A stretch of DNA of 64,000 nt from assembly GCA_003560875.1 (NCBI GenBank), contig PWJQ01000035.1, forward strand, positions 7,182 through 71,181. Direction: 5' to 3'. Each line of letters opens with the position of its first letter. The first letter of the stretch is position 1. Shown piece after piece: positions 1,032 through 61,351 of the stretch. The notes beneath the pieces were generated by a model that made no database searches, was not told the DNA's origin, and worked only from the letters and a program-made list of their open reading frames with translations. Source of the stretch: Methanomassiliicoccaceae archaeon. GTDB taxonomy: Archaea > Thermoplasmatota > Thermoplasmata > Methanomassiliicoccales > Methanomethylophilaceae. Made by a program: the position numbers and the translations under genes.

Positions 1032-1823
1032 ATGCACAGGGTTGTTGACCGCATGGCGGAGCGTCAAGATTGGCCTGAGGTGCCGGGCGAATACCGGACC
1101 GGCACTGAGGACTCCCCCGTTGCCATAGCGGTCATCGGGAAGGCGTCAGCGGATGTGCCTTCCGATTGCTATCGGATCATGGGCACCCTGCGTTCCGCCA
1201 ATATCGGAGTGGAGAAGGTCGTCGTCAATATGCTCGCCAATCCTCGCCTCAGGTTCCTGTTGGTTTGCGGCCGGGAGGATGGGCACTACCCCGGCGATGC
1301 GTTGGTTAAGCTGGCGGAGAACGGCATTGACGACCGCAACAACATTATCGGAGCCCATGCCCAGTTCCCCTGCCTCCCGGACCTCGACAGGGATTCCGTG
1401 GAGAGGTTCCGTTCCCAGGTGGAGGTCGTCGACCTCTTGCACCCCAAGGATTCCAAAGGGGATATCGATTGGGAGGATCCGTTGTATGTCTTCGATGATG
1501 AACGGAACCGTGAGTTGGAGGCCACCGCCCGTCAATGCGCCCGGCGGGACCCCGGCCCGTATCCCGGCGGGGCTTTACATATCACGATCCCGGGGATGAT
1601 GCAGGAAAGGGGCGATCTGGGGGATATGTTGAATATGGAGGTCGGCCGCATGACCGACCTGATGCTCCGTATGCCCATTGATAATCTGACGACCGACGCC
1701 CTCAACATCACCGTTTCCGAGGATTTTGCTTTGGTCATCGACCCTATCGACGGTCTGCTCCTCGAGGTTCCCACGGTCACTTTCCACAAACGTTTCAAAT
1801 CATACCTGACGGGCAACGAGTGA
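1032..1823 (+). CDS. Soluble MtrA-like corrinoid protein (homologue of tetrahydromethanopterin S-methyltransferase subunit A) with a unique ~100-aa C-terminal extension
   Basis: The first ~150 aa align by eye with MtrA: WPEVPGEY, IGVEKVVVNMLANPRLRFLLVCG, GHYPGDAL, RFRSQVEVVDLL. There is no C-terminal TM anchor and no other mtr genes nearby. A GGGGGAA SD-like element lies ~12 nt upstream. Confidence 0.72.
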   Translation: MHRVVDRMAERQDWPEVPGEYRTGTEDSPVAIAVIGKASADVPSDCYRIMGTLRSANIGVEKVVVNMLANPRLRFLLVCGREDGHYPGDALVKLAENGIDDRNNIIGAHAQFPCLPDLDRDSVERFRSQVEVVDLLHPKDSKGDIDWEDPLYVFDDERNRELEATARQCARRDPGPYPGGALHITIPGMMQERGDLGDMLNMEVGRMTDLMLRMPIDNLTTDALNITVSEDFALVIDPIDGLLLEVPTVTFHKRFKSYLTGNE

Positions 1824-1889: not shown

Positions 1890-2267
1890 CTAGAATTTTT
1901 CCGGGAAGTTGAACCTCTCCACCGCTCTAGCACCGCCGACCATACCCATTATCCACACTATCGGGTACAATAAGAACCCCACCAAAAAGGCCATGGATGC
2001 CGCGGCTATTATGCCAGCCAACAGGAAAACCAGCCCCGTGGTCCATTCAGCCGCGTACATGTGACCCAAGCCCGGGACGAGGAAGGCCAGTACGACCGCT
2101 ATGGCAGGGCTTCTCTGCGGACGGGACTGCGGAGGTGCCAGGCCTTGGGATTCAGAACCGAGCTCGGGCCTCTGATGATAACCGCATCTCGGACAGTAAG
2201 TCGCCCCGATCTTCAATGATGACCCGCAGTTCACGCAGGATGATTCCAAATCACCGTTCTTCCCCAT
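1890..2267 (-). CDS. Zinc-ribbon membrane protein
   Basis: N-terminal CxxC...CxxC (CVNCGSS...CPRCGY) is followed by two hydrophobic helices carrying a P-G-L-G-H-M-Y motif. An AT-rich TATA-like element (tttaaaaaatattataa on the coding strand) lies ~25-40 nt upstream. Confidence 0.6.
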   Translation of the reverse strand: MGKNGDLESSCVNCGSSLKIGATYCPRCGYHQRPELGSESQGLAPPQSRPQRSPAIAVVLAFLVPGLGHMYAAEWTTGLVFLLAGIIAAASMAFLVGFLLYPIVWIMGMVGGARAVERFNFPEKF

Positions 2268-2481
2268 GACGTTTGAATACGTACCGTCTTCTTATAATAT
2301 TTTTTAAAGGTCACCGAACCCGACTCCTCCTCTGGAATGGTGATTGTCGGAATTTTTATGGCCTGCGCGGTCCGGAAGGCCGTGATGAAGGAGGATGTTC
2401 ATCACGTGCCCCGACTTCCCGGACATATCAGACGATGGCGATATGTGATTGTCCTGTGCCATACTCTTTCATCACCTTCGC

Positions 2482-2826
2482 CTATCGAATTCTCTTTGTG
2501 AGTAGGGCATCCAATACCGCGTATGACCATATCGTGATGTATGATAGGAATGCCACCATCGTCATGACTGCACCGTGGCCGAAGGAAGTGTGTGATGAGG
2601 AGACGCTCAGCGCACCATAGGAGAATATCGAGAACACGAACAACAGGACGGAAAGTACGACCAGGGTCATCCCTCTCCACGACTCGCCTTTCATTATCTG
2701 GCCGATGCCAGGGACCACTGCGGAGAACAATGAGGGTATGAGCCCCCTTCTCACCCGCTCCGTCAAAGAATCCTTCGATACCGTCGGTTTGAAAGTGTCG
2801 TCCCCTCCCGGCGAAGGACCTTCCAT
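2482..2826 (-). CDS. Small membrane protein, distantly paralogous to 1890..2267 (P-G-I-G-Q-I motif)
   Basis: 114-aa ORF with 3 predicted hydrophobic helices. It shares the VPG[LI]G[HQ] segment with the neighbouring gene. No family assignment is possible by eye. Confidence 0.5.
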   Translation of the reverse strand: MEGPSPGGDDTFKPTVSKDSLTERVRRGLIPSLFSAVVPGIGQIMKGESWRGMTLVVLSVLLFVFSIFSYGALSVSSSHTSFGHGAVMTMVAFLSYITIWSYAVLDALLTKRIR

Positions 2827-3003
2827 GACCTTTGGAACGGCTCACATCGATAAAACCGCTTTCATGGCCACAATGTTTTTCGGACCGGAGAAGTTTTAAA
2901 TAGTCTGCAATAATCCGTCAAAGGTAGTGACGGGACTAGTCCCGTTGGAGATGTGCCCCCTAAGGGGTGAATCCATAAACGCCGGAAACGGCAGGTGATA
3001 CAA

Positions 3004-3630
3004 ATGGCGAAGCAGTTTGATGATGATGCCGTCCCCACAGTCAAGGGGAAGAGCATGTACCAATACATGGCCGAGGCCTGGAAGAAACCAGGCGAGGGCT
3101 ACATGAAAGACCTGTCCCTGCAGAGAAGGGTCAAGTGGCGCCGTGAGGAGAACTTCTCCCGCGTCGAGAGGCCCACCCGCCTGGACCGTGCCCGCAAGCT
3201 CGGATACAAGGCCAAGCAGGGATACGTCGTCGTCCGCGGTCGCGTCCGTAAGGGTTCGATGCAGAAGAGGACCATTAAAGGAGGCCGCCGTGCCAAGCGC
3301 AAGGGAATCACCAAGATCACCGGTGCCAAGAGCCTGCAGCGCATGTGTGAGGAGAGGACGCAGAAGAGATACCCCAACCTTGAGGTCCTGAACTCCTATT
3401 GGGTAGGCCAGGACGGTCACCACGAGTGGTACGAGGTCATACTTGTCGACCCCCACCACCCCGTCATAAAGGCGGACCCCAAGATCAACTGGATCGGCGA
3501 GGGTTCCCACAAGGGCCGTGTCTACCGCGGGAAGACCTCTGCTGGAAAGCGTGGTCGCGGTCTGCACAAGAAGGGCAAGGGAGCGGAGAAGGTCCGCCCC
3601 TCCATAAGCAAGAAAGGCCTCGGAAAGTAA
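3004..3630 (+). CDS. rpl15e: 50S ribosomal protein L15e
   Basis: [12 protein letters not shown]..., [23 protein letters not shown] and the basic C-terminus are typical of eL15. I chose ATG 3004 because GGTGAT lies 4 nt upstream. The track ORF starts at GTG 2995, and ATG 3055 (MYQYM) is an alternative start. Confidence 0.9.
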
Positions 3631-3648
3631 GGCTTAGTCCTGACTGGA

Positions 3649-4485
3649 TCAAACCATTTCCTTCAATCTTCTTTCTATTTCCTTATCGTCCATTCCTACC
3701 AAGGGCGCATACACCGGGACCTCGAAACGCATCTCCTTGAGATCATCGAAGCCCTCCATACCCAGGCCGGTGACGACTCCCAAAATGTCATCCCCGATGA
3801 AAGGCTCCCCGTCCTCCTTGATCGTCTTGAGCTCGGGATCATAGGCCTGTAGCAGAGGGTGTGCGAGACCGGATACGAGCGCCCTGCAACCCCTCTTCAT
3901 CAATAACCAGGCGGCTAGGGCGTCACGGTCGTCCTCCACGAAAGCTATCACCTTCCCCTGAGTGCCCATGGGGAGGCCTCCGGGACCGTCCTGATAGGTA
4001 TCGAAGATGAAGGCCCTGGGACCGCGCACCTCTATGAATATCTCCACATCTGGTGAGTTGAGGTCCACTCTGACGCCGAGATGCTCGTTGGCGTGGTATA
4101 TCGCCGAGCCGGCATTACGGCCGATTTCGATCGAGGTATAGGGATGAGTGCCCTCCCTCCTCGGCCGGACCGCGAAGGACTGGCCCTCATGCAACCGTCC
4201 CTTAGAGTAGGCGGCGGCATGCTCACATATCTCATCCAGAGTACTTCCGCATGTCTCGACTACACTCACTGACGACACACCGAAGACGCGACGGAGACGG
4301 GTGACGGCTTCATCCCCATCATCGGACTCGACGTAGAAACGGCCCTCGTCGGAATGGAGCAGGGCCTCCACCCTGCCCTTGGCCAATGCCGATAGGATGT
4401 TGTCCCTCAGCAGGTTCTCGAACCGCCTGCGTACCATACGGCTCTTCAGCCCCAGCTCCGCGTAGCGTATGAGGATCGTGCTCAT
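3649..4485 (-). CDS. ThiI-like THUMP-domain protein with degenerate, truncated PP-loop domain
   Basis: The N-terminus ILIRYAELGLKS plus THUMP-like region resembles ThiI. GGLPMGTQGKVIAF and AAWLLMKRGC flank the position of the SGGxDS PP-loop, which reads VEDDRD here (3922..3939). The C-terminal PLVGMDDKEI resembles the ThiI RPLIGxDKxEI motif. Confidence 0.65.
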   Translation of the reverse strand: MSTILIRYAELGLKSRMVRRRFENLLRDNILSALAKGRVEALLHSDEGRFYVESDDGDEAVTRLRRVFGVSSVSVVETCGSTLDEICEHAAAYSKGRLHEGQSFAVRPRREGTHPYTSIEIGRNAGSAIYHANEHLGVRVDLNSPDVEIFIEVRGPRAFIFDTYQDGPGGLPMGTQGKVIAFVEDDRDALAAWLLMKRGCRALVSGLAHPLLQAYDPELKTIKEDGEPFIGDDILGVVTGLGMEGFDDLKEMRFEVPVYAPLVGMDDKEIERRLKEMV

Positions 4486-4542
4486 CGGTCTGATATTCGG
4501 GCACCACTTATAAACGGTTCCTTCTGCGAAGGTAGAAAAGGA

Positions 4543-4630
4543 TGGTGCAGGGGAAGGGATTCGAACCCTCGAACGTCTGCACGACTAGACCCTGAATCTA
4601 GCACCTTTGGCCAGGCTCGGTAACCCCTGC
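4543..4630 (-). tRNA. tRNA-Leu (anticodon CAG), long variable arm, CCA encoded
   Basis: The reverse complement folds as a cloverleaf. Acceptor is GCAGGGG/CCCCTGC. Anticodon stem CTAGA/TCTAG carries loop TTCAGGG. There is a long extra arm and T-loop GGTTCGAATCC, then discriminator A and CCA. Confidence 0.93.
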
Positions 4631-4730
4631 TTAAGGACGCTGAATCGCATCATTGTACAAAAAGCTTAGCAATAAGGAATGGGTTTGGGGGGTTGGCCCC
4701 CCTGATTATACGCTTCGTAATGGTCGGGCT

Positions 4731-4949
4731 TCAGCCCTTCATTATCTTCATCCAGCCGCCGCTCTCGAAGATTGCCAGACCCCTCTTCATAAGGGCGGAC
4801 TGGAAGTCCTCCCAGCTTATGATCTCCAGCCTGTCGTTGTTGCCCTTGGTGAACTGAACACCATCGGTTCCCTTGACGCGTCCCGGCTTGAGACCCTTGT
4901 TCTCGGCAATCTGCCTTGCCTTCACTATGTTGATTTTCTCCATAACCAT
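4731..4949 (-). CDS. Small hypothetical protein (72 aa)
   Basis: ATG is preceded by GGAGGG 7 nt upstream. The product is soluble and lysine/glycine-rich. A G6-TTGG-C6 hairpin (4687..4702) follows the stop. No family recognised. Confidence 0.55.
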   Translation of the reverse strand: MVMEKINIVKARQIAENKGLKPGRVKGTDGVQFTKGNNDRLEIISWEDFQSALMKRGLAIFESGGWMKIMKG

Positions 4950-5213
4950 TACCTATCCCTCCTGCTTAACCACGCCTATCCAGCATGGTAATTGTGCTAT
5001 TTCTTTGAGGGATATATATATCTTTGCAAAAAAAACAGCTGTCCAGATGGTTTTTGATATTTAAAAGTGACCCATGGAGGCCATTTTTAGCCAGTATTTT
5101 TCTTAGTGAGAAGTGTCGAATATTGAGCGGAAATCAGAAAGAAAGATAACTCGGATAGTCCATCTCCGAGCGATATTATGTCCCTTTTCGGTTAATCAGG
5201 CATCAGAGGAAAG

Positions 5214-6467
5214 GTGGGGGAGAGGATCACCCCCGAACTTGTACTATCGATAGGCGCAGCGGTGGGTACATGCAACGACAAGGTTATAATCGCCAAGGAC
5301 ACGCGCACCTCGGGGGACATGATGGTCAGTGCTCTCGTGGCGGGAATATGTTCCGTCGGTTCCGAGGCCCATTGTGCCGACATACTGCCCACGCCCACCC
5401 TGGCACGCGCTGCGGGGCGGTTCGATGCGGGCATTATGGTAACCGCCTCCCACAACCCGGCGGAGTACAACGGGGTTAAGCTCTGGAACCCCGACGGTTC
5501 GGCCTTCGATCCGAAGCAGACGGAGGAGATAGAGGAACTGATAATGAAAAGGGTCTTCCCGCTCAAGCGTTATGATGAATTGGGCGCCATGCATGTGCAC
5601 CACGGCGCACTGGATGCTCATCGTGAATCGATAAGGGACATTCTGCAATGCGATTGCGACATCGTGATAGACTGCGCGTCAGGACCGACCTCGTTGATCA
5701 CCCCCGGACTCCTGTCCGACATGGGTGGCAGGGTCGTCAGTCTAAACTGCCAGGTCGACGGCAGATTCCCGGGCCGGGAGCCTGAGCCCACCGAAGAGAA
5801 CCTGACCGATCTCATCAGTATGGTGAGGTCCCATGGCGGCATAGGTCTGGCCCACGACGGCGACGGGGACCGTGCGGTCGCGGTGGACGAGACCGGACGC
5901 TATCTCGGTGGTGACGTTCTGTTGTCGCTTTTCGTGGACCATATGAGGCCTTCCAAGGTGGCAGTGCCCATCGATGCGTCACTGGCCATAGACGATATGG
6001 TGAAGGACGTCGTCAGGACCAAGGTCGGCGATGTCTTCATCTCCGACGCCATGAAGAAGGAGGGCATATCATTCGGCGGTGAGCCCTCAGGCCCCTTCGT
6101 CTTCGCAGAACAGGGATACTGTCCCGACGGCGTCTACGCCGCCGCCCTTTTGGCCAGCATGGCATCTGAAAGCCGTCTCGCTGACCGGGTGGACGAACTG
6201 CCCCGTTACCCAATGTTCAAGAAAAAATACCAGTACAGCAACGCCAAGGGCGCCATACTGCAACGCATGGAGGACGAGGTCTCCGGCATAGAGTGCGAGG
6301 AGGTCGTCACCTTGGACGGTTTCCGTGTCGGCATGGGGGACGCCTGGTTCCTGATCCGCTTCTCAGGAACGGAGCCCATAATACGACTGACAGCCGAGGC
6401 CCGTGACGACGCCCGGCTGAAGGAGGTCGTGGAATCGGCGGAGGGACTGGTCGGGAGGTGCCTGTGA
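5214..6467 (+). CDS. glmM: Phosphoglucosamine/phosphohexose mutase (GlmM-type); N-terminus interrupted by an in-frame TAA
   Basis: TASHNPAEYNGVKL (phosphoserine loop), AHDGDGDRAV (Mg site), GGEPSG and RFSGTEP are present. The track ORF begins at GTG 5214. In the same frame upstream, ATG 5178 encodes MSLFG, then TAA (5193..5195), then SGIRGK, which together form the conserved family N-terminus. Confidence 0.85.
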   Translation: MGERITPELVLSIGAAVGTCNDKVIIAKDTRTSGDMMVSALVAGICSVGSEAHCADILPTPTLARAAGRFDAGIMVTASHNPAEYNGVKLWNPDGSAFDPKQTEEIEELIMKRVFPLKRYDELGAMHVHHGALDAHRESIRDILQCDCDIVIDCASGPTSLITPGLLSDMGGRVVSLNCQVDGRFPGREPEPTEENLTDLISMVRSHGGIGLAHDGDGDRAVAVDETGRYLGGDVLLSLFVDHMRPSKVAVPIDASLAIDDMVKDVVRTKVGDVFISDAMKKEGISFGGEPSGPFVFAEQGYCPDGVYAAALLASMASESRLADRVDELPRYPMFKKKYQYSNAKGAILQRMEDEVSGIECEEVVTLDGFRVGMGDAWFLIRFSGTEPIIRLTAEARDDARLKEVVESAEGLVGRCL

Positions 6468-22393: not shown

Positions 22394-22417
22394 TGGTTCG
22401 ACAAACCCCTTCCATTT

Positions 22418-23326
22418 CTATGCCCTTCTCAGGCCGTGATGGGCGGCGGCCCTTCTGGCGTCCCGGTACTCTTCGGGACGGATGCGCCGTTTGAGTGCCG
22501 CGTGGGCAGCGTTGGACCCCAGGACCTTGTGGCAGGGCCGGTACTGGTCCATGATGTTGACGTAGCTGTCCCGTGACAGCTCCTCGGCTATGAAGGCCAT
22601 GACCCCCTCGCTACCTGCCAACCTCTCCGGTAGCACCAGATGTCTGATGATCATCCCGCGGACGGCGATGCCGTCCTCCACTACGAGGTCCCCGACCTGA
22701 CGGTGCATCTCCTTCAGGGCGGAGCGCATCACCGCCGGGTAGTCGTCCACATGCGACAGCCTCGAGGCCACCGCAGGGTCGTCGTACTTGGCATCGGGCA
22801 TGTAGATGTCCACCACGCCGTCCAACAAGCGCAGCGCCTCCACGCGGTCGTATCCACCGCTGTTGTAGACCAACGGCAACCTCAACCCCCTCCCGGCAGC
22901 GAGGTCCAAGGCCTCCAGTATCTGCGGTATAACGTGGGAGGGCGTCACCAGGTTGATGTTGTGACATCCCATGCGCTGCAGGTCGGCCATCATCTCCGCC
23001 AATCGTTCAGCGTCGACCGCCGCCCCTTCCGAACCCTGACTGATGCCGTGATTCTGGCAGAAGTCGCAGTGCATGTTGCAGCCACCGAAGAATATGGTCC
23101 CCGAACCGTTTCTACCAACCAAGGGAGCCTCCTCACCGAGGTGGGGGCCATAACTGCAGACCGATGCGTTGCGGCCGATGCCGCAGGCGCCTCTGACATC
23201 ATTGATGCGGTCGACGCCACAGTGCCGGGGGCAGCAATGACAATCCGCGAGACGGGACACCGCCTTAGCCGCCCTCTCCGAGAGCTCCCCGCTATTATGC
23301 AGCGACAGGTACGATGGTCCGCTCAT
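22418..23326 (-). CDS. Radical SAM protein, PflX/pyruvate-formate-lyase-activase-like
   Basis: GCNMHCDFCQN (CxxxCxxC) plus an N-terminal Cys-rich segment CHCCPRHCGVDR...C. Length and order resemble COG1313-type proteins. Confidence 0.75.
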   Translation of the reverse strand: MSGPSYLSLHNSGELSERAAKAVSRLADCHCCPRHCGVDRINDVRGACGIGRNASVCSYGPHLGEEAPLVGRNGSGTIFFGGCNMHCDFCQNHGISQGSEGAAVDAERLAEMMADLQRMGCHNINLVTPSHVIPQILEALDLAAGRGLRLPLVYNSGGYDRVEALRLLDGVVDIYMPDAKYDDPAVASRLSHVDDYPAVMRSALKEMHRQVGDLVVEDGIAVRGMIIRHLVLPERLAGSEGVMAFIAEELSRDSYVNIMDQYRPCHKVLGSNAAHAALKRRIRPEEYRDARRAAAHHGLRRA

Positions 23327-23397
23327 CAGGGAAAAATGGGTGGATGAGATTTAAGCCCTTGTCATTACGTCGCTCGACCACACGGTCTGAACAAGCG

Positions 23398-23404
23398 TTT
23401 TAAA
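23398..23404 (+). promoter_or_regulatory. TATA box for tRNA-Gly
   Basis: ttttaaa is centred ~28 nt upstream of the tRNA 5' end (23429). Confidence 0.5.
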
Positions 23405-23428
23405 CCTGAATTCGTTACACCGTCCCAC

Positions 23429-23503
23429 GCGACTGTAGTCTAGCGGTTAGGACCGGGGCTTCCCAAGCCTCTAACCCGGGTTCAAATCCCGGCAGTCGCA
23501 CCA
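23429..23503 (+). tRNA. tRNA-Gly (anticodon CCC), CCA encoded
   Basis: Acceptor GCGACTG/CAGTCGC. Anticodon stem GGGGC/GCCTC carries loop TTCCCAA. T-loop is GGTTCAAATCC, followed by discriminator A and CCA. Confidence 0.92.
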
Positions 23504-23558
23504 GACCCCTTCACCAACTAGTCCCTGGGACGCTCTCTTTCTCCCTTAAGAATGAAAT

Positions 23559-24422
23559 ATGATGGATAACGCTACGAGTGACATCGTCCGCGGACGGGGG
23601 GATTTGATGATTGATATGGGAACCTTGGATACTGGAATACCGTTGCTGGGAATGACGTGGTTGAACCTTCTGTCCTCGTTGTTGATCCTTGGCATCGGTA
23701 TCGTGGCGGTCAAGTATGCGGTCCGATATTTCCGTAAAGGCCTCTCCCGGAGCCGTCTACCCGACCTCGTGGTGGAGTTCCTGAGTCGTTTCCTCAGTGT
23801 GCTGCTTTATGTGGCGGTCCTCCTCGTCTTCGTGTCCTCACTCGGTATCGAGGTGGGTCCGGTGGTCCTCGGACTTTCCGCCATAATCGGCCTGGTCCTC
23901 GGATTCGGAATGCAGGACACTCTCACCAATATATCCAGTGGCGTATGGATCGCCGCCCTCAGGCCGATGGACAAAGGGGACTTCGTAACCATCGGCGGAT
24001 ACAGCGGCACCGTCAACGCCGTCGGCATAATGGCCACCGAGCTTCTCACCGTTGACAACCAGCTCATCACCATCCCCAACAAGCTGGTGTGGAACAACTC
24101 CATAATCAACAACACCCGGATGCCCACCCGCCGGGCCTCGGTGGACGTCGGTATTTCGTACAAGTCCGACCTCGACAAGGCTATAAGGGCGGCCATGGAC
24201 CTCATGAACGCCCATCCCAAGGTGTTGCAGGACCCGTCCCCGGCGGTGGTGGTCCTGGGTCTCGGCGACTCGTCGGTGGATCTCCAGTTGCGTGCCTGGA
24301 CTGCGAACGCTGACCTGTGGGGCGTCAAATGGGACCTGACCGGCGATATAATCAAGGTTTTCAGGGACAACGGAATCGAGATACCCTATCCGCAGAGGGA
24401 CGTCCATATGATCACGGAATGA
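23559..24422 (+). CDS. Small-conductance mechanosensitive channel (MscS family)
   Basis: Three N-terminal TM helices are followed by the MscS beta-domain pattern (GDFVTIGGYSGTVNAVGIMATEL...TIPN). The exact start is uncertain. Confidence 0.8.
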   Translation: MMDNATSDIVRGRGDLMIDMGTLDTGIPLLGMTWLNLLSSLLILGIGIVAVKYAVRYFRKGLSRSRLPDLVVEFLSRFLSVLLYVAVLLVFVSSLGIEVGPVVLGLSAIIGLVLGFGMQDTLTNISSGVWIAALRPMDKGDFVTIGGYSGTVNAVGIMATELLTVDNQLITIPNKLVWNNSIINNTRMPTRRASVDVGISYKSDLDKAIRAAMDLMNAHPKVLQDPSPAVVVLGLGDSSVDLQLRAWTANADLWGVKWDLTGDIIKVFRDNGIEIPYPQRDVHMITE

Positions 24423-26191: not shown

Positions 26192-26212
26192 AACATTTTA
26201 TGTACAAATGTT
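26192..26212 (+). promoter_or_regulatory. Perfect 7-bp inverted repeat AACATTT-N7-AAATGTT overlapping a TATA-like element upstream of the DapA-Fae genes
   Basis: The sequence is aacattt tatgtac aaatgtt, located 21-41 nt upstream of ATG 26233. It is a candidate operator/promoter. Confidence 0.4.
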
Positions 26213-26232: not shown

Positions 26233-27660
26233 ATGTTCAAGGAACCCATCTTCAGCGGAGTCTACGCATCGCTGGTAACACCTTTCGACGCCGATGAGGG
26301 CGTCGACGAGTCCGCCCTGAGGAAACTCATCTCACGCATGGTCGGAGAGGTGGACGGACTGGTGGTCTGTGGTGCCGAAGGGGAGTTCGAATACCTCTCC
26401 GATACGGAGCGACGCAGGGTGATCGCCGTTGCCGTGGACGAGGTGGCGGGAAGGGTGCCGTTGATCGTCGGCACCGGCTCGGCTAGCACCCGCCTGGCTT
26501 GTCAACTGTCATCCTTCGCCGAAGAAGCGGGGGCCGATGCGGTCATCGTTTCCACACCCTACTTCCTGTTCCCTGCCGACAAGGGATATCATCAACACTT
26601 CCTCGAGGTATCAAATTCCACATCCTTGCCGATGATCGTCTACAATCCCATGGAGACCTGCATCGGTCGCATACCCCGGAAGGTCCTGGAGGACATATCC
26701 TACTTGGATAACGTGGTTGCACTGGCGGATTCCTCGGGCGACATGCCGTACCTCATGGAGGTCATCGAGAAGGTGAAGGGCAGGATGGACGTCCTGGTGA
26801 GTAACGAGGAGACCGTGTATCCCTCCCTGTGCGTCGGATGCTCGGGTATGATACTGGGTAGCGCCCAGGTCTATCCGTCGTTGTGGAGGGGGATGTTCAA
26901 TTCCTTCGCGGATGGTGACGACGATCAGTCACGCATCCTACAGGCCAGGGTGCAGAAGCTCTCCCGCCTGTTCATGAGACACGGTCTGGCGGTGCCTTTG
27001 AAGGCGGCACTGAGGATGATCGGTGAACCGGTGGGCAAGGCCCGTGGTCCTTTGAAGGAGGGGGGCTCCCTGCTGCATGAGGACCGGGAGGAGATCAAGG
27101 TCGAACTGGAGAGGATCGGTATGTTGGAGCGCGCCGGCCAGTCCGTAACGGAATACGACATGCCCTTGAACGAGAGGTTCAGCGACATAGGTATCAGTCC
27201 CGCGGACATCCAGAGTCATGGCGTACGCCTGTCGTCGGCATCCCATGGCAGCGGGGAGGAGCGGGCGGTCATCGATATCGCCCTGGGCCGGAAGGACGGC
27301 CTCCTGGGCGACGTTTTCGCATCCCAGCTCGTATATCTCGATCACGGCAAGGAATCATTGCCCATCGTCCTGGAGCCGAACCTCGCCACCCTGCCACCGT
27401 GCCTGATCATCCCGGTCATGGAGCTGCGCAGCATGCGCCAGGCGAACATGGTCTACGGTCCGGCACAGGGCGCGATAGCCAAGGCCATCGTGGACCTCTG
27501 TGCCGAGGGCATGGTACCGCAGAGGGTGATGGATGAATGCATAATGCTGGCACGGGTGTTCATGGACCCCAACGCCCTCGACCGTTCCTCGATCTACGTG
27601 AACTTCCATCAGGCCACCCGCAAGGCCATGGAGGAACTGCTCAAGGAGGTGCCGCAATGA
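26233..27660 (+). CDS. Fusion protein: DapA/DHDPS-fold domain (Schiff-base Lys absent) + C-terminal formaldehyde-activating-enzyme (Fae)-like domain, paralogue 1
   Basis: The N-terminal ~300 aa show the DHDPS pattern (SLVTPFD, GRVPLIVGTGS, GADAVIVSTPYF, IVYN) but read VVALADSSGD where the family has IxGIKExxG. The C-terminal ~145 aa align with Fae (LEPNLATLPPCLIIP, YGPAQGAIAKAIVDLCAEGMVP, ARVFMDPNA...VNFHQATRKAM). ATG 26233 has GGTGAG upstream. The track ORF starts at 26200. Confidence 0.8.
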   Translation: MFKEPIFSGVYASLVTPFDADEGVDESALRKLISRMVGEVDGLVVCGAEGEFEYLSDTERRRVIAVAVDEVAGRVPLIVGTGSASTRLACQLSSFAEEAGADAVIVSTPYFLFPADKGYHQHFLEVSNSTSLPMIVYNPMETCIGRIPRKVLEDISYLDNVVALADSSGDMPYLMEVIEKVKGRMDVLVSNEETVYPSLCVGCSGMILGSAQVYPSLWRGMFNSFADGDDDQSRILQARVQKLSRLFMRHGLAVPLKAALRMIGEPVGKARGPLKEGGSLLHEDREEIKVELERIGMLERAGQSVTEYDMPLNERFSDIGISPADIQSHGVRLSSASHGSGEERAVIDIALGRKDGLLGDVFASQLVYLDHGKESLPIVLEPNLATLPPCLIIPVMELRSMRQANMVYGPAQGAIAKAIVDLCAEGMVPQRVMDECIMLARVFMDPNALDRSSIYVNFHQATRKAMEELLKEVPQ

Positions 27661-29105
27661 GGAGCTCCGACCTGAGAGGCGTCTTCGCGCCTCTGGTAAC
27701 ACCCTTCGACGAAGGTCTGAAGGTCGACGACGAGCGGTTGCGTGGACATGTGAGATGGCTCATGGGCCGCGTCGAAGGCCTGGTCTGCACCTCGGACGTC
27801 GGGGAGTTCGTACATTTGACTGAGACTGAGAGGGTCGAGGTCTGGAGATCGGTGATGGATGAGGTGGACGGGCGGGTTCCAGTGATCGTCGGCAGCGGTT
27901 CGTCGAGCACCAAGGTGGCCAAGGAACTCACCCTCAAGGCCGCTGAGATGGGAGTCGATGCCGCCCTTGTGGTCGACCCCTACTTCTACCGCAGCAGCGG
28001 CAAGGAACGCTACGAGCACTTCCAGGCCCTGGACGCCCTTGGCCTCCCGTTGATAAACCACAACGTCTGCCGCTACACCGGTGCGGAGAGGGAATGGTGG
28101 ACCACCGAGGGCATAGCGGCCTTGGAGAATGTCATCGGCATATTGGATGCCACCGGGGACATGGCCTACACCGCCACCTTGACAGAGAAGGTGGACGACG
28201 CCGCGATTCTGGCGGGCAAGGACGAGGTGGCGGCGATGGCACTGGCACAAGGCTGCAGCGCCGCCGTACCGCCCACCGCCAACTTCATACCCGACCTGTG
28301 GTCGGAGATATATGCGGCGATAGGTGCCAACGACCTCGACTCTGCCCGTTCTTTGCAGATGAGGATACAGAAGACATGTCGCATATCCCACACCTGCCCC
28401 CACCATGTGGCCAAGGCCGCCCTGTGGATGATGGGGCGGGACATGGGACGACCTGCACCCCCGGCGCTGCCCGGCGACAACTTCCTGCATGAGGACTGGG
28501 ATGAGCTGCGCCATCAGTTAGCAGGGCTCGGATTGCTGGACACCAAGAAGGTTCGCATGACAGTCGGTGATGCGTCCTGGGACAGCACCGTGGCATCGAT
28601 ACCGCACACCCCTGACTCCGTCGACCTGCGGATGCTGATCGGCGAAGCCTATTCCGGTCCGTCGGCGCATGAGGCGGCACACGTTGACCTGCTCATCGGC
28701 AGCGACGATGGGCCGGTGGGGAGGGCCTACGACGCGTCGTTGCTAAATGACCGGGAGGGCAGGGTCAGGGAGCTGATGTCGATGCCCCGTTGCATGGTCG
28801 TGCCAACGGTGACAGCGAGGACGGCGAAGCAGAAGAGACATATGGAGCTGGCCTCCGCCGGGGTGGTCCAGGCGGTGGAGGAGGCGGTCGGTGACGGTTT
28901 CCTGCCCCGCGACATGCTGGACCGTATCCGCTTGATCGCCAACGTGTTCGTGCACCCCGGCGCTGCCAACGAGAGGCGCATCCGGGTGAACAACTACAAG
29001 GCCATGCGCAACGCCATAAGGAGGGCGGTGGAGGGAAGACCCCACGCCGAGGAACTGGTGTGGCTGAAGGACTCTGTGAGACACCCCACCCGCTACACGC
29101 CTTAA
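27657..29105 (+). CDS. Fusion protein: DapA/DHDPS-fold domain (Schiff-base Lys absent) + C-terminal Fae-like domain, paralogue 2
   Basis: ATGA overlap with paralogue 1, and AAGGAGGTG lies 5 nt upstream of ATG 27657. N-terminal PLVTPFD, GRVPVIVGSGS, GVDAALVVDPYF, and VIGILDATGD in place of the K motif. The C-terminal domain matches Fae strongly at both ends (MLIGEAYSG...EAAHVDLLIGSDDGPVG; NVFVHPGA...NNYKAMRNAIRRAVEGRP...HPT). Confidence 0.8.
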   Translation: MRSSDLRGVFAPLVTPFDEGLKVDDERLRGHVRWLMGRVEGLVCTSDVGEFVHLTETERVEVWRSVMDEVDGRVPVIVGSGSSSTKVAKELTLKAAEMGVDAALVVDPYFYRSSGKERYEHFQALDALGLPLINHNVCRYTGAEREWWTTEGIAALENVIGILDATGDMAYTATLTEKVDDAAILAGKDEVAAMALAQGCSAAVPPTANFIPDLWSEIYAAIGANDLDSARSLQMRIQKTCRISHTCPHHVAKAALWMMGRDMGRPAPPALPGDNFLHEDWDELRHQLAGLGLLDTKKVRMTVGDASWDSTVASIPHTPDSVDLRMLIGEAYSGPSAHEAAHVDLLIGSDDGPVGRAYDASLLNDREGRVRELMSMPRCMVVPTVTARTAKQKRHMELASAGVVQAVEEAVGDGFLPRDMLDRIRLIANVFVHPGAANERRIRVNNYKAMRNAIRRAVEGRPHAEELVWLKDSVRHPTRYTP

Positions 29106-60280: not shown

Positions 60281-61351
60281 TCAGGACAGGATCTCCGGCA
60301 GGCGGTCCTCTTCGGCGGCCCTCTTGATCTCCATGGCGAGACGTGCGCCGCTGCTCATGCCGGGATGGATCATGTCCGCATACGGCGAGCCGGAGATGAA
60401 GGGGTTGGTACCGGCGACTATGCGTGAGGATATCTCGAAGACCTTGAAATCCAACTTATCAGTGACGATGGACTCCAAGCAGAACGGACCCCATATACCG
60501 CCGAACATCTCGTAGGAGCGCTTGATGATCTTCTCCGCCATGTCGAAGGCCTTGGGCAGAAGCGACTCGCGGATGACCACCGGGACGTTGCCGGTGACCA
60601 CGAAGGAGGGGAAGAGACCGTGGCGCTTCATGTCCTCCTGCGAGCCGAGCTTGTACATCTCATCGATGTTACTCTCGTCACGGCGGTCGATGGACAGCAT
60701 CTCCAGGCTTCCCTCATGGGCGTGATAGCCCTCAGTGGACAGCGGTGAGTAGAAGAAGTGCAGGTAGTACCTCGTTCCCAGGACGTACTCCTGTATGGTG
60801 TACGGTTGCGTATGGTCGATACCCATCTTGAACTCCGCGTAGTCCTTGGCGACGAAGAAGCCACGGCCGCCCTTGGCGCCGTGGTACTTCACCAGCACCG
60901 GCTGGTCGATGTCCCGGGCGTCGTCGATCATCTTGGGCATGGCGACGCCGGCGGAGGTTATCCACTGCCTCTCCATGTCGCGGTCCGACTCCCACTGCAG
61001 AACGGAACGGTTCCCGTACACTGGTATCTCCAGGTTCTGGAACCTCTTGGCCCCCATGTACTCCACGAAGGACCCGTGCGGTATGAGGATGACGTTCTTG
61101 TCCACCAGCTCAGGAGCGCGGGTGAACATCTCATCGAAGTCCTTGAACCTCAGTATCTCGTCCGGCTTCCCCAGCGGGAAGGCGTCGTAGTAACGGGTGT
61201 CATGGTTGACTGTCAGACCCATGGTCTTGAAACCTAGCTTACGTGCACCATGGAAAATCTGCAATGACGAATGAGAGGTGAGTGTGGCGATTGTTATGTC
61301 GTCACGGTCGTATTCGGCAAGAAGTGCGTCAATCCTCTCTTTGGGAACCAT
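60281..61351 (-). CDS. purP: 5-formaminoimidazole-4-carboxamide ribonucleotide (FAICAR) synthetase PurP
   Basis: IATLTSHSSLQIFHGARKLGF N-terminus and ATP-grasp core resemble MJ0136-type PurP. 356 aa. Confidence 0.85.
   Translation of the reverse strand: MVPKERIDALLAEYDRDDITIATLTSHSSLQIFHGARKLGFKTMGLTVNHDTRYYDAFPLGKPDEILRFKDFDEMFTRAPELVDKNVILIPHGSFVEYMGAKRFQNLEIPVYGNRSVLQWESDRDMERQWITSAGVAMPKMIDDARDIDQPVLVKYHGAKGGRGFFVAKDYAEFKMGIDHTQPYTIQEYVLGTRYYLHFFYSPLSTEGYHAHEGSLEMLSIDRRDESNIDEMYKLGSQEDMKRHGLFPSFVVTGNVPVVIRESLLPKAFDMAEKIIKRSYEMFGGIWGPFCLESIVTDKLDFKVFEISSRIVAGTNPFISGSPYADMIHPGMSSGARLAMEIKRAAEEDRLPEILS

Follow-up and report, generated by a model that had tools for sequence, protein, structure and literature searches.

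Parallel loss of the catalytic lysine in both barrels of an aldolase-Fae gene pair from a Methanomassiliicoccales lineage

Genes A and B are adjacent in a 64,000-nucleotide stretch of DNA from a Methanomassiliicoccaceae archaeon (assembly GCA_003560875.1, contig PWJQ01000035.1; hereafter the window). They encode two proteins, W1 and W2, in which a barrel of the DHDPS/NAL type is followed by a Fae domain. Both barrels lack the Schiff-base lysine of this enzyme class (K161 in Escherichia coli DapA). This loss is derived, specific to the lineage and parallel in two old paralogues, because 236 of 240 proteins of the same fusion family and 142 of 143 other proteins of the DHDPS superfamily keep the lysine. 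The most fitting description of W1 and W2 is that of a pseudo-aldolase variant, confined to one lineage, of an aldolase-Fae family that is widespread and uncharacterised; they demonstrate no new mechanism. The genes and their domains are as follows.

26233..27660, + strand: gene A, encoding W1 (475 aa), clade-A subunit of the DHDPS-like/Fae fusion family
26251..27060, + strand: (beta/alpha)8 barrel of W1, DHDPS/NAL fold, catalytic constellation lost
27244..27657, + strand: Fae-like domain of W1, clade-A type (residues 338-475)
27657..29105, + strand: gene B, encoding W2 (482 aa), clade-B subunit of the DHDPS-like/Fae fusion family
27672..28472, + strand: (beta/alpha)8 barrel of W2, DHDPS/NAL fold, catalytic constellation lost, evolution accelerated
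28638..29090, + strand: Fae domain of W2, canonical type

The two proteins are 31% identical to each other, and each has its own set of orthologues. Pfam assigns the DHDPS domain (PF00701, cutoff 22.1 bits) to W1 with an E value of 1.5e-55 (188.5 bits) and to W2 with 2.8e-46 (158 bits), and the Fae domain (PF08714, cutoff 27 bits) with 4.2e-32 (111.8 bits) and 3.4e-30 (105.6 bits), respectively. Both proteins fall below every NCBIfam equivalog cutoff, including those for DapA, NanA and KDG aldolase; for the DapA equivalog TIGR00674, W1 scores 175 bits and W2 130.3 bits against a cutoff of 206.15. An earlier sequence-only reading of this DNA had presented them as two DapA-like paralogues. That description needs revision, as W1 represents the A member and W2 the B member of a conserved two-gene DHDPS-like/Fae family in which the lysine is otherwise kept.

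Replacements at the catalytic positions are visible in the codons of both genes.

26725..26727, + strand: Ala165 (GCG) at the Schiff-base lysine position (E. coli K161), strand beta-6 of W1
28143..28145, + strand: Leu163 (TTG) at the Schiff-base lysine position (E. coli K161), strand beta-6 of W2
26371..26385, + strand: GAEGE replacing GTTGE in W1 (T44 to Ala48, T45 to Glu49)
27792..27806, + strand: SDVGE replacing GTTGE in W2 (G43 to Ser46, T44 to Asp47, T45 to Val48)
28059..28061, + strand: His135 replacing the catalytic Tyr133 in W2 (NHNV for YNIP)
26800..26808, + strand: Ser190-Asn191-Glu192 replacing the family G-H-D in W1 (E. coli G186-D187-D188)
28218..28220, + strand: Lys188 of W2, new, directly after beta-7 and kept in all variants of the lineage

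The assignment of Ala165 (residue 176 if the open reading frame (ORF) is numbered as 486 aa) and Leu163 to the lysine position rests on several alignments. A phmmer comparison with solved DapA structures sets 'nvvalAdssgd' of W1 and 'nvigiLdatgd' of W2 opposite 'nivaiKdaggd' without gaps, and in a MAFFT alignment of 243 sequences both residues stand in the K161 column of E. coli DapA, whose sequence there is identical to that of PDB 1DHP. AlphaFold2 models of W1 and W2 (predicted local distance difference test scores 87.9 and 89.4) each contain eight barrel strands, with Ala165 and Leu163 on beta-6. When compared with DHDPS crystal structures by using Foldseek, W1 reaches template modelling (TM) scores of 0.94-0.96 and W2 of 0.93-0.94 (target-normalised), with root-mean-square deviations of 1.4-1.8 Å. 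A superposition with TM scores of 0.93-0.96 excludes a shift of register or strand, and neither the alignments nor the superposed models place a lysine at the Schiff-base position in either protein. The loss that the sequence-only reading had proposed is thus borne out by the codons, the phmmer and MAFFT columns, and the structural models alike.

Other catalytic residues have changed as well. In DHDPS, Thr44 and Thr45 bind the substrate carboxylate, Tyr133 belongs to the proton relay, and Arg138 binds aspartate semialdehyde. The altered GTTGE motifs noted previously are seen in the MAFFT alignment as well as in the codons, and the same alignment shows that Tyr133 is retained solely in W1 (VYNP), with His135 in its place in W2. 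At the G186-His187-Asp188 motif of the family, W2 reads GKD. The earlier remark that Tyr107 is replaced by phenylalanine is correct for both proteins, but this is not a loss specific to the lineage, since 107 of 120 clade-A and 41 of 120 clade-B sequences also carry phenylalanine. Similarly, the Arg138 position is occupied by threonine in W1, tyrosine in W2, and valine, threonine or cysteine across the fusion family; because this arginine is missing throughout, even the lysine-containing relatives are not DapA. With no lysine at the K161 position, canonical lysine-enamine class I aldolase chemistry is impossible in either barrel, as had been concluded from the sequence.

The fusion family to which the pair belongs consists of clade A (~475 aa, including W1) and clade B (~490 aa, including W2), all of whose members are DHDPS-Fae fusions. 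Its hosts are uncultured Methanomassiliicoccales and other Thermoplasmatota, Anaerolineae and other Chloroflexota, Bathyarchaeia, Promethearchaeota, Thorarchaeota, and others, and its members are usually annotated as '4-hydroxy-tetrahydrodipicolinate synthase'. Many genomes, including those of other Methanomassiliicoccales, Chloroflexota and Thorarchaeota, carry the genes in tandem, A then B, with overlapping or abutting ORFs; Bathyarchaeia and Promethearchaeota have a single B-like gene. One lysine-containing pair is that of Methanomassiliicoccales CP070739, at L004:8569-9999 and L004:10001-11476. Among 1.84 billion representatives clustered at 50% identity, the fused form accounts for ~13 full-length clusters, with W1 and W2 each in a cluster of its own. 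In each of the two clades, 118 of 120 sequences keep K161, T44, T45 and Y133, and the only exceptions are W1, W2, and their orthologues with 89% and 88% identity. The GxKDSSG, GTTGEF and YNIP motifs are present in all 13 full-length representatives and at every other genomic locus examined. The 143 superfamily proteins mentioned above are 50%-identity representatives that cover the site. Set against such retention, the absence of the lysine from W1 and W2 goes far beyond what chance would produce.

W1 nests within clade A in 92 of 100 bootstrap replicates of a distance tree, and W2 groups with clade B; strict clade B has support of 49 of 100, and the single-gene forms of Bathyarchaeia and Baldrarchaeia branch apart. 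The nesting of W1 in clade A and the presence of A-B pairs in other phyla show that the A/B duplication is far older than this lineage, and the two lysine losses are therefore independent. Each replacement (AAR to GCG and AAR to TTG) requires at least two nucleotide changes.

One other lysine-less protein was encountered among the 143 representatives: P0272, a stand-alone DHDPS-like protein of 296 aa that has glutamate at the Schiff-base position (AVEEGSG). A literature search found no lysine-less DHDPS-like proteins. A separate feature of the fusion family is the histidine of its GHDE motif, at the position of E. coli D187, which is present in 111 of 118 clade-A and 112 of 118 clade-B sequences. 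This position is aspartate in DapA and variable in the closest other representatives of the superfamily, and the family-specific histidine may set the substrate specificity of the fusion family.

The Fae domains of the two subunits differ. Relative to Methylobacterium extorquens Fae (PDB 1Y5Y), W2 and clade B keep the AHxDL motif (His22/Asp24), Phe119, His121, and the C-terminal RHP(F) tail. W2 carries AAHVDL, retaining the equivalents of both His22 and Asp24, and W1 carries RAVIDI, with valine at the His22 position. Throughout clade A, His22 is replaced by glutamine (in most members) or arginine and the RHPF tail is missing (e.g., in P0003, P0015, P0244 and P0246); clade A has invariant Fae motifs of its own, LEPNL, RQAN and YGPxQ, which W1 keeps. 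Only the Fae domain of W2, among the four domains of the pair, has a canonical catalytic signature. The A/B system is thus intrinsically asymmetric, with one subunit carrying a non-canonical Fae domain. A role of His22 and Asp24 in Fae is reportedly given in the paper on the 1Y5Y and 1Y60 structures, and a literature search on the active site of Fae turned up no paper listing its residues. The Fae-Hps profile NF009833 gives scores of 103.6 and 77.9 against a cutoff of 274, with matches to its Fae part alone (positions ~2-160 of 392).

Divergence of W1 and W2 from their clades is concentrated in the barrels. We called a position family-invariant if it is at least 95% invariant within its clade. 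W1 has changed 21 of 134 such positions and W2 20 of 120, compared with a median of 0-1 in ordinary members. All 20 changes in W2 fall among the 73 invariant barrel positions and none among the 47 of the linker and Fae domain (Fisher p=2e-5), and in W1 the counts are 17 of 93 and 4 of 41, the latter four all being conservative. The changes sit on active-site motifs: GTTGE, YN-IPQ, K161, G186-His187-Asp188, G201-I203 in W2, and Gly248, which is leucine in W1. The barrel of W2 is 40% identical to clade B, whereas 66% is typical, and its ratio of barrel to Fae identity is 0.78 versus 1.04±0.04. Root-to-tip distances of the barrels in the distance tree are 1.80 and 1.91, compared with medians of 1.51 and 1.56.

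Both genes are under purifying selection. The ratio of nonsynonymous to synonymous substitution rates (dN/dS) was calculated by the Nei-Gojobori method between the window and a sister genome with the same gene order (GCA_007128455.1). For whole genes it is 0.090 (A) and 0.089 (B), and 19 flanking genes range from 0.025 to 0.16. By domain (dS ~0.65-1.1), the values for W1 and W2 are 0.056 and 0.083 in the barrels, 0.108 and 0.082 in the Fae domains, and 0.16 and 0.14 in the linkers. Identical or near-identical copies of the genes occur in at least five independent assemblies, the window also being matched by GCA_007117095.1. Independent assemblies from NCBI, ENA, JGI and Logan yield ~11 sequence variants, none of which has a frameshift or stop and each of which keeps the replacement residues. 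An assembly error as the cause of the lysine loss was rejected on the basis of the identical proteins in these independent assemblies.

Signals for expression are associated with both genes.

26196..26204, + strand: TATA-like box TTTTATGTA, ~30 bp upstream of the probable gene A start at ATG 26233
27645..27651, + strand: Shine-Dalgarno-like GGAGGTG, 5 nucleotides before the gene B ATG

The window and the sister genome hardly differ in the intergenic stretch upstream of gene A, including the TATA-like box, and TTTTATGTA is presumably the promoter of gene A. The earlier description of the genes as full-length, maintained and equipped with expression signals agrees with a dN/dS of ~0.09, the conserved TATA-like box of gene A, and the strong Shine-Dalgarno sequence of gene B. 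However, the start of gene A had been set at 26200, where an in-frame ATG would give a protein of 486 aa. The true start is most likely ATG 26233, because the homologues are all ~475 aa and the gene call in the sister genome is also 475 aa. Genes A and B are co-directional, with the start codon of B and the stop codon of A overlapping in ATGA, which suggests translational coupling; the same 4-nucleotide overlap is present in the sister genome.

Because the genes are intact and class I chemistry is impossible, the barrels have presumably retained a role other than that of an aldolase. The sequence-only reading had gone further and proposed a new function of the barrel. A retained non-aldolase role is what holds up from that proposal; sequence alone does not distinguish among ligand binding, scaffolding, and Fae-dependent catalysis. 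We give an even chance to the reading in which the aldolase half has been lost, the barrels are folded pseudo-enzyme scaffolds, and the complex works through the Fae domain of subunit B. The scaffold and surviving Fae are favoured because W2 has changed so many invariant barrel positions and none in its linker and Fae domain. In addition, the Fae domain of clade A is non-canonical and nonetheless retained, a precedent that lends plausibility to dead domains serving as structural elements.

According to this model, the ancestral enzyme would have had two subunits, each with a DHDPS/NAL-type class I aldolase barrel and a Fae domain, and this Methanomassiliicoccales lineage would have abandoned the aldolase half-reaction. 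The lysine was lost independently as K to A in subunit A and K to L in subunit B, as were the Thr-Thr pair and His187/Gly186, with Tyr133 lost in B as well. The barrels persist, folded and under selection, and their likely role would be structural, comprising oligomerisation and the positioning of the Fae domains, probably within a hetero-oligomer. This complex would most likely still bind a tetrahydropterin, either tetrahydromethanopterin (H4MPT) or a folate-type carrier, and condense it with formaldehyde. Its function would then have shrunk from 'aldolase + Fae' to 'Fae only'.

Several observations weigh against this proposal. The scores of the pair for the NCBIfam Fae model TIGR03126 (one_C_fae), at 107.8 and 113.9 bits, fall slightly short of its cutoff of 118.05. 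It is uncertain which pterin would partner the Fae domain, since part or all of the H4MPT methyl branch is reportedly missing from Methanomassiliicoccales (PMC9723798). Our literature search found no description of a DHDPS/DapA-Fae fusion, and one for the assembly accessions yielded no paper either. Within the lysine-less lineage, a smaller share of positions varies in the shell of the former pocket than elsewhere in the barrel, with 2 of 60 versus 26 of 209 positions variable in W1 (p=0.05) and 2 of 59 versus 42 of 208 in W2 (p=0.001). Finally, Lys188 of W2, the only new lysine at a pocket position, adjoins the old site, although it is not at the Schiff-base position. It replaces the family-conserved His187 (E. 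coli D187) at a position that we take to line the active-site cavity of DHDPS; W1 has Asn191 there (26803-26805).

These last two observations raise the possibility, on balance an unlikely one, that the pockets were rebuilt for a new ligand or chemistry instead of being switched off, perhaps with an aldehyde handed over to Fae. The low variability of the pocket shell fits either a structural core or a pocket still in use, so the pocket could still bind something. Most of the new residues are polar or charged, and all variants share them; the dN/dS of the barrels is as low as that of housekeeping genes. If an active-site lysine has been relocated, Lys188, directly after beta-7, is the sole candidate, and a Schiff base could form on it in subunit B. 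Alternatively, metal-assisted or non-covalent catalysis could proceed via Asp47, His135, Arg139 and Lys188 in B, and Glu49, Glu141, Asn191 and Glu192 in A. However, W1 has no new lysine at any pocket position, and the residues for binding the carboxylate of a 2-oxo acid and for the proton relay are gone in both subunits. Several substitutions (G186 to S, G248 to L and T45 to E in A; T44 to D in B) resemble a filling of the pocket or a mimic of the substrate. Strand-end positions are structurally conserved in any barrel, and with only about two species-level lineages known, the conservation signal is weak. Less probable still is the specific version in which the rebuilt pockets form a new active site that performs non-canonical chemistry on a new substrate and is coupled to the fused Fae domain.

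A fully non-catalytic pair, in which barrels and Fae domains together form a binding, sensing or regulatory module such as a formaldehyde or pterin sensor or a storage protein, is improbable. Three of the four domains lack canonical catalytic residues, and a convergent gene for a helix-turn-helix (HTH)/V4R regulator abuts the 3' end of the pair in both the window and the sister genome. Also, the partner genes that lie directly upstream in 24 of 49 other loci of the family (described below) were not found in the window. However, no family-invariant position has changed in the Fae domain of B, the Fae histidine and aspartate included, a conservation for which retained catalysis is the simplest explanation, and no evidence links the pair to the neighbouring regulator.

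Decay of genes A and B after loss of function is very improbable, even though both barrels are on long branches. Kae1 of the window shares 82% identity with its counterpart in a Methanomethylophilaceae archaeon and 72-77% with those of other Methanomassiliicoccales. No A/B orthologue of intermediate identity is present in a collection of 5.8 billion proteins. This suggests that the pair is absent from syntenic relatives whose Kae1 is 82-87% identical and whose loci extend no further than the RibD_C gene, and it hints that the pair is dispensable in the wider clade. The sample names of these relatives suggest an origin in soda-lake sediment (e.g., SL_8KL_010_SED). However, dN/dS values of 0.06-0.11 in the barrel and Fae domains at a dS of ~0.7-0.8 are those of maintained genes, as are the absence of frameshifts and stops, the conserved promoter and Shine-Dalgarno signals, and the confidently predicted folds. 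Pseudogenisation was rejected on these grounds.

That the catalytic lysine is present but misaligned is hardly credible in view of the ungapped HMMER matches, the 243-sequence alignment and the TM scores, and the sole point in its favour is Lys188 of W2. Conserved barrel lysines of W1 (e.g., K117, K242 and K257) also occur in lysine-containing homologues and therefore are not replacements, and the rest lie outside the pocket motifs. The other barrel lysines of W2, such as K178 and K253, likewise either coexist with K161 in homologues or lie outside those motifs.

In comparison with characterised DHDPS/NAL proteins (DapA, NanA, KDG aldolase, YagE and MosA), W1 and W2 share the (beta/alpha)8 fold with its C-terminal helical domain, and they retain the G-E of GxxGE, N134, D/E162, the SSG/TG turn and K253. 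They differ in lacking the beta-6 lysine, Thr44/Thr45 and Arg138, in having phenylalanine for Tyr107 and, in W2, in the loss of Tyr133. They also have a C-terminal Fae domain, which is found in none of the solved structures that their models matched. With the rest of the fusion family they share the two-domain architecture, lengths, tandem A-B order and clade-specific Fae signatures, but they lack GxKDSSG, GTTGEF, YNIPQ and GHDE, their barrels evolve faster, and the partner genes are absent from the window. The Fae domain of W2 resembles 1Y5Y in having His22/Asp24, F119/H121 and the region of the RHPF tail.

In Fae-Hps enzymes, the barrel partner of Fae releases or consumes formaldehyde. By analogy, the ancestral reaction of the fusion family might have been a 2-oxo-acid aldol reaction that releases or consumes formaldehyde and is coupled to a tetrahydropterin. 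The barrel partner in W1 and W2 is of the DHDPS type and N-terminal, unlike Hps, which is of the orotidine monophosphate decarboxylase type, and this DHDPS-type partner is probably dead in this lineage. Fae-Hps of methanogens, in which Fae is fused to the Hps barrel, is nevertheless a precedent for the fusion concept (PMC9723798).

Pseudoenzymes are catalytically dead paralogues that are kept as scaffolds or regulators. W1 and W2 resemble them in having lost catalytic residues from an intact fold under ongoing purifying selection. Unlike usual pseudoenzymes, the dead domain is fused to a probably live one, and the loss occurred in parallel in both subunits of what is presumably one complex. 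The pair would therefore be a clean case of parallel pseudoenzyme evolution within a complex. As a natural 'aldolase knockout' under strong selection, the lineage offers a control for separating the two half-reactions. If the pocket was instead rebuilt, the pair would exemplify a natural migration or re-invention of an active site in the DHDPS/NAL fold and would provide an entry to the reaction of the aldolase-Fae family, perhaps that of a formaldehyde-channelling 2-oxo-acid aldolase.

The pair also exposes a widespread aldolase-Fae family, usually an A/B pair, that spans Methanomassiliicoccales, Bathyarchaeia, Asgard archaea and Anaerolineae and has been mis-annotated as 'DapA'. Genes A and B should not be counted as lysine-biosynthesis dapA genes in metabolic reconstructions. 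If the family couples an aldol reaction to a one-carbon (C1) carrier, it would bear on how anaerobes without a complete C1 branch are supplied with methylene units.

Clustering the ORFs of 49 fusion-family loci revealed two partner families, of 315 aa (8 of 49 loci) and 428 aa (16 of 49 loci), whose genes lie directly upstream of, or divergent from, lysine-containing DHDPS-Fae genes. Examples of the 315-aa family are at L047:8548-9495 (+) and L004:7588-8526 (+), with others at loci L011, L025, L039, L051, L052 and L055; the 428-aa family is found, for example, at L030:8668-9951 (+) and L023:742-2034 (-) and at 14 more loci. Neither family has a match in Pfam, NCBIfam or PDB sequences, and neither gene was found in the 64-kb window. 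An hhalign comparison shows a weak link between the two (probability 12%), with a common FKxSxxxG motif. The partner families are likely a third component of the aldolase-Fae system.

Genes flanking the pair in the window are housekeeping genes, including those for RtcA, RibD_C, the HTH-V4R regulator, an IF-2B-family protein (PF01008), a class II aldolase, Nop, IF5A, and others, and they give no hint to the function of the pair. The only C1-related gene nearby encodes a stand-alone MtrA-like protein of 263 aa (PF04208, 125 bits) at 1032-1820 (+); the order to which the organism belongs reportedly has neither the Mtr complex nor the H4MPT methyl branch. The product of this gene may be a corrinoid or pterin methyl-transfer protein. 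A PurP-type gene (DUF1246/DUF1297, formate-dependent FAICAR synthetase) is found at 60281-61351 (-). PurP is typically found in archaea whose purine synthesis does without formyl-folate, and the gene therefore bears on the C1 carrier of the host.

A further difference between the window and its relatives concerns three genes inserted between radical-SAM and MscS genes at loci L089 and L090 (positions 2044-5632), from soda-lake relatives with ~87% Kae1 identity. These genes encode a phosphoenolpyruvate mutase with a cytidylyltransferase domain, a thiamine pyrophosphate-dependent decarboxylase, and an iron-type alcohol dehydrogenase (Fe-ADH), and the insertion looks like a phosphonate biosynthesis cassette of the 2-aminoethyl- or hydroxyethyl-phosphonate type. 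It is absent from the sister genome and from the corresponding place in the window (~22400-23560). There, the radical-SAM gene at 22418-23326 (-) differs at one end from the sister copy in length and frame (302 versus 316 aa).

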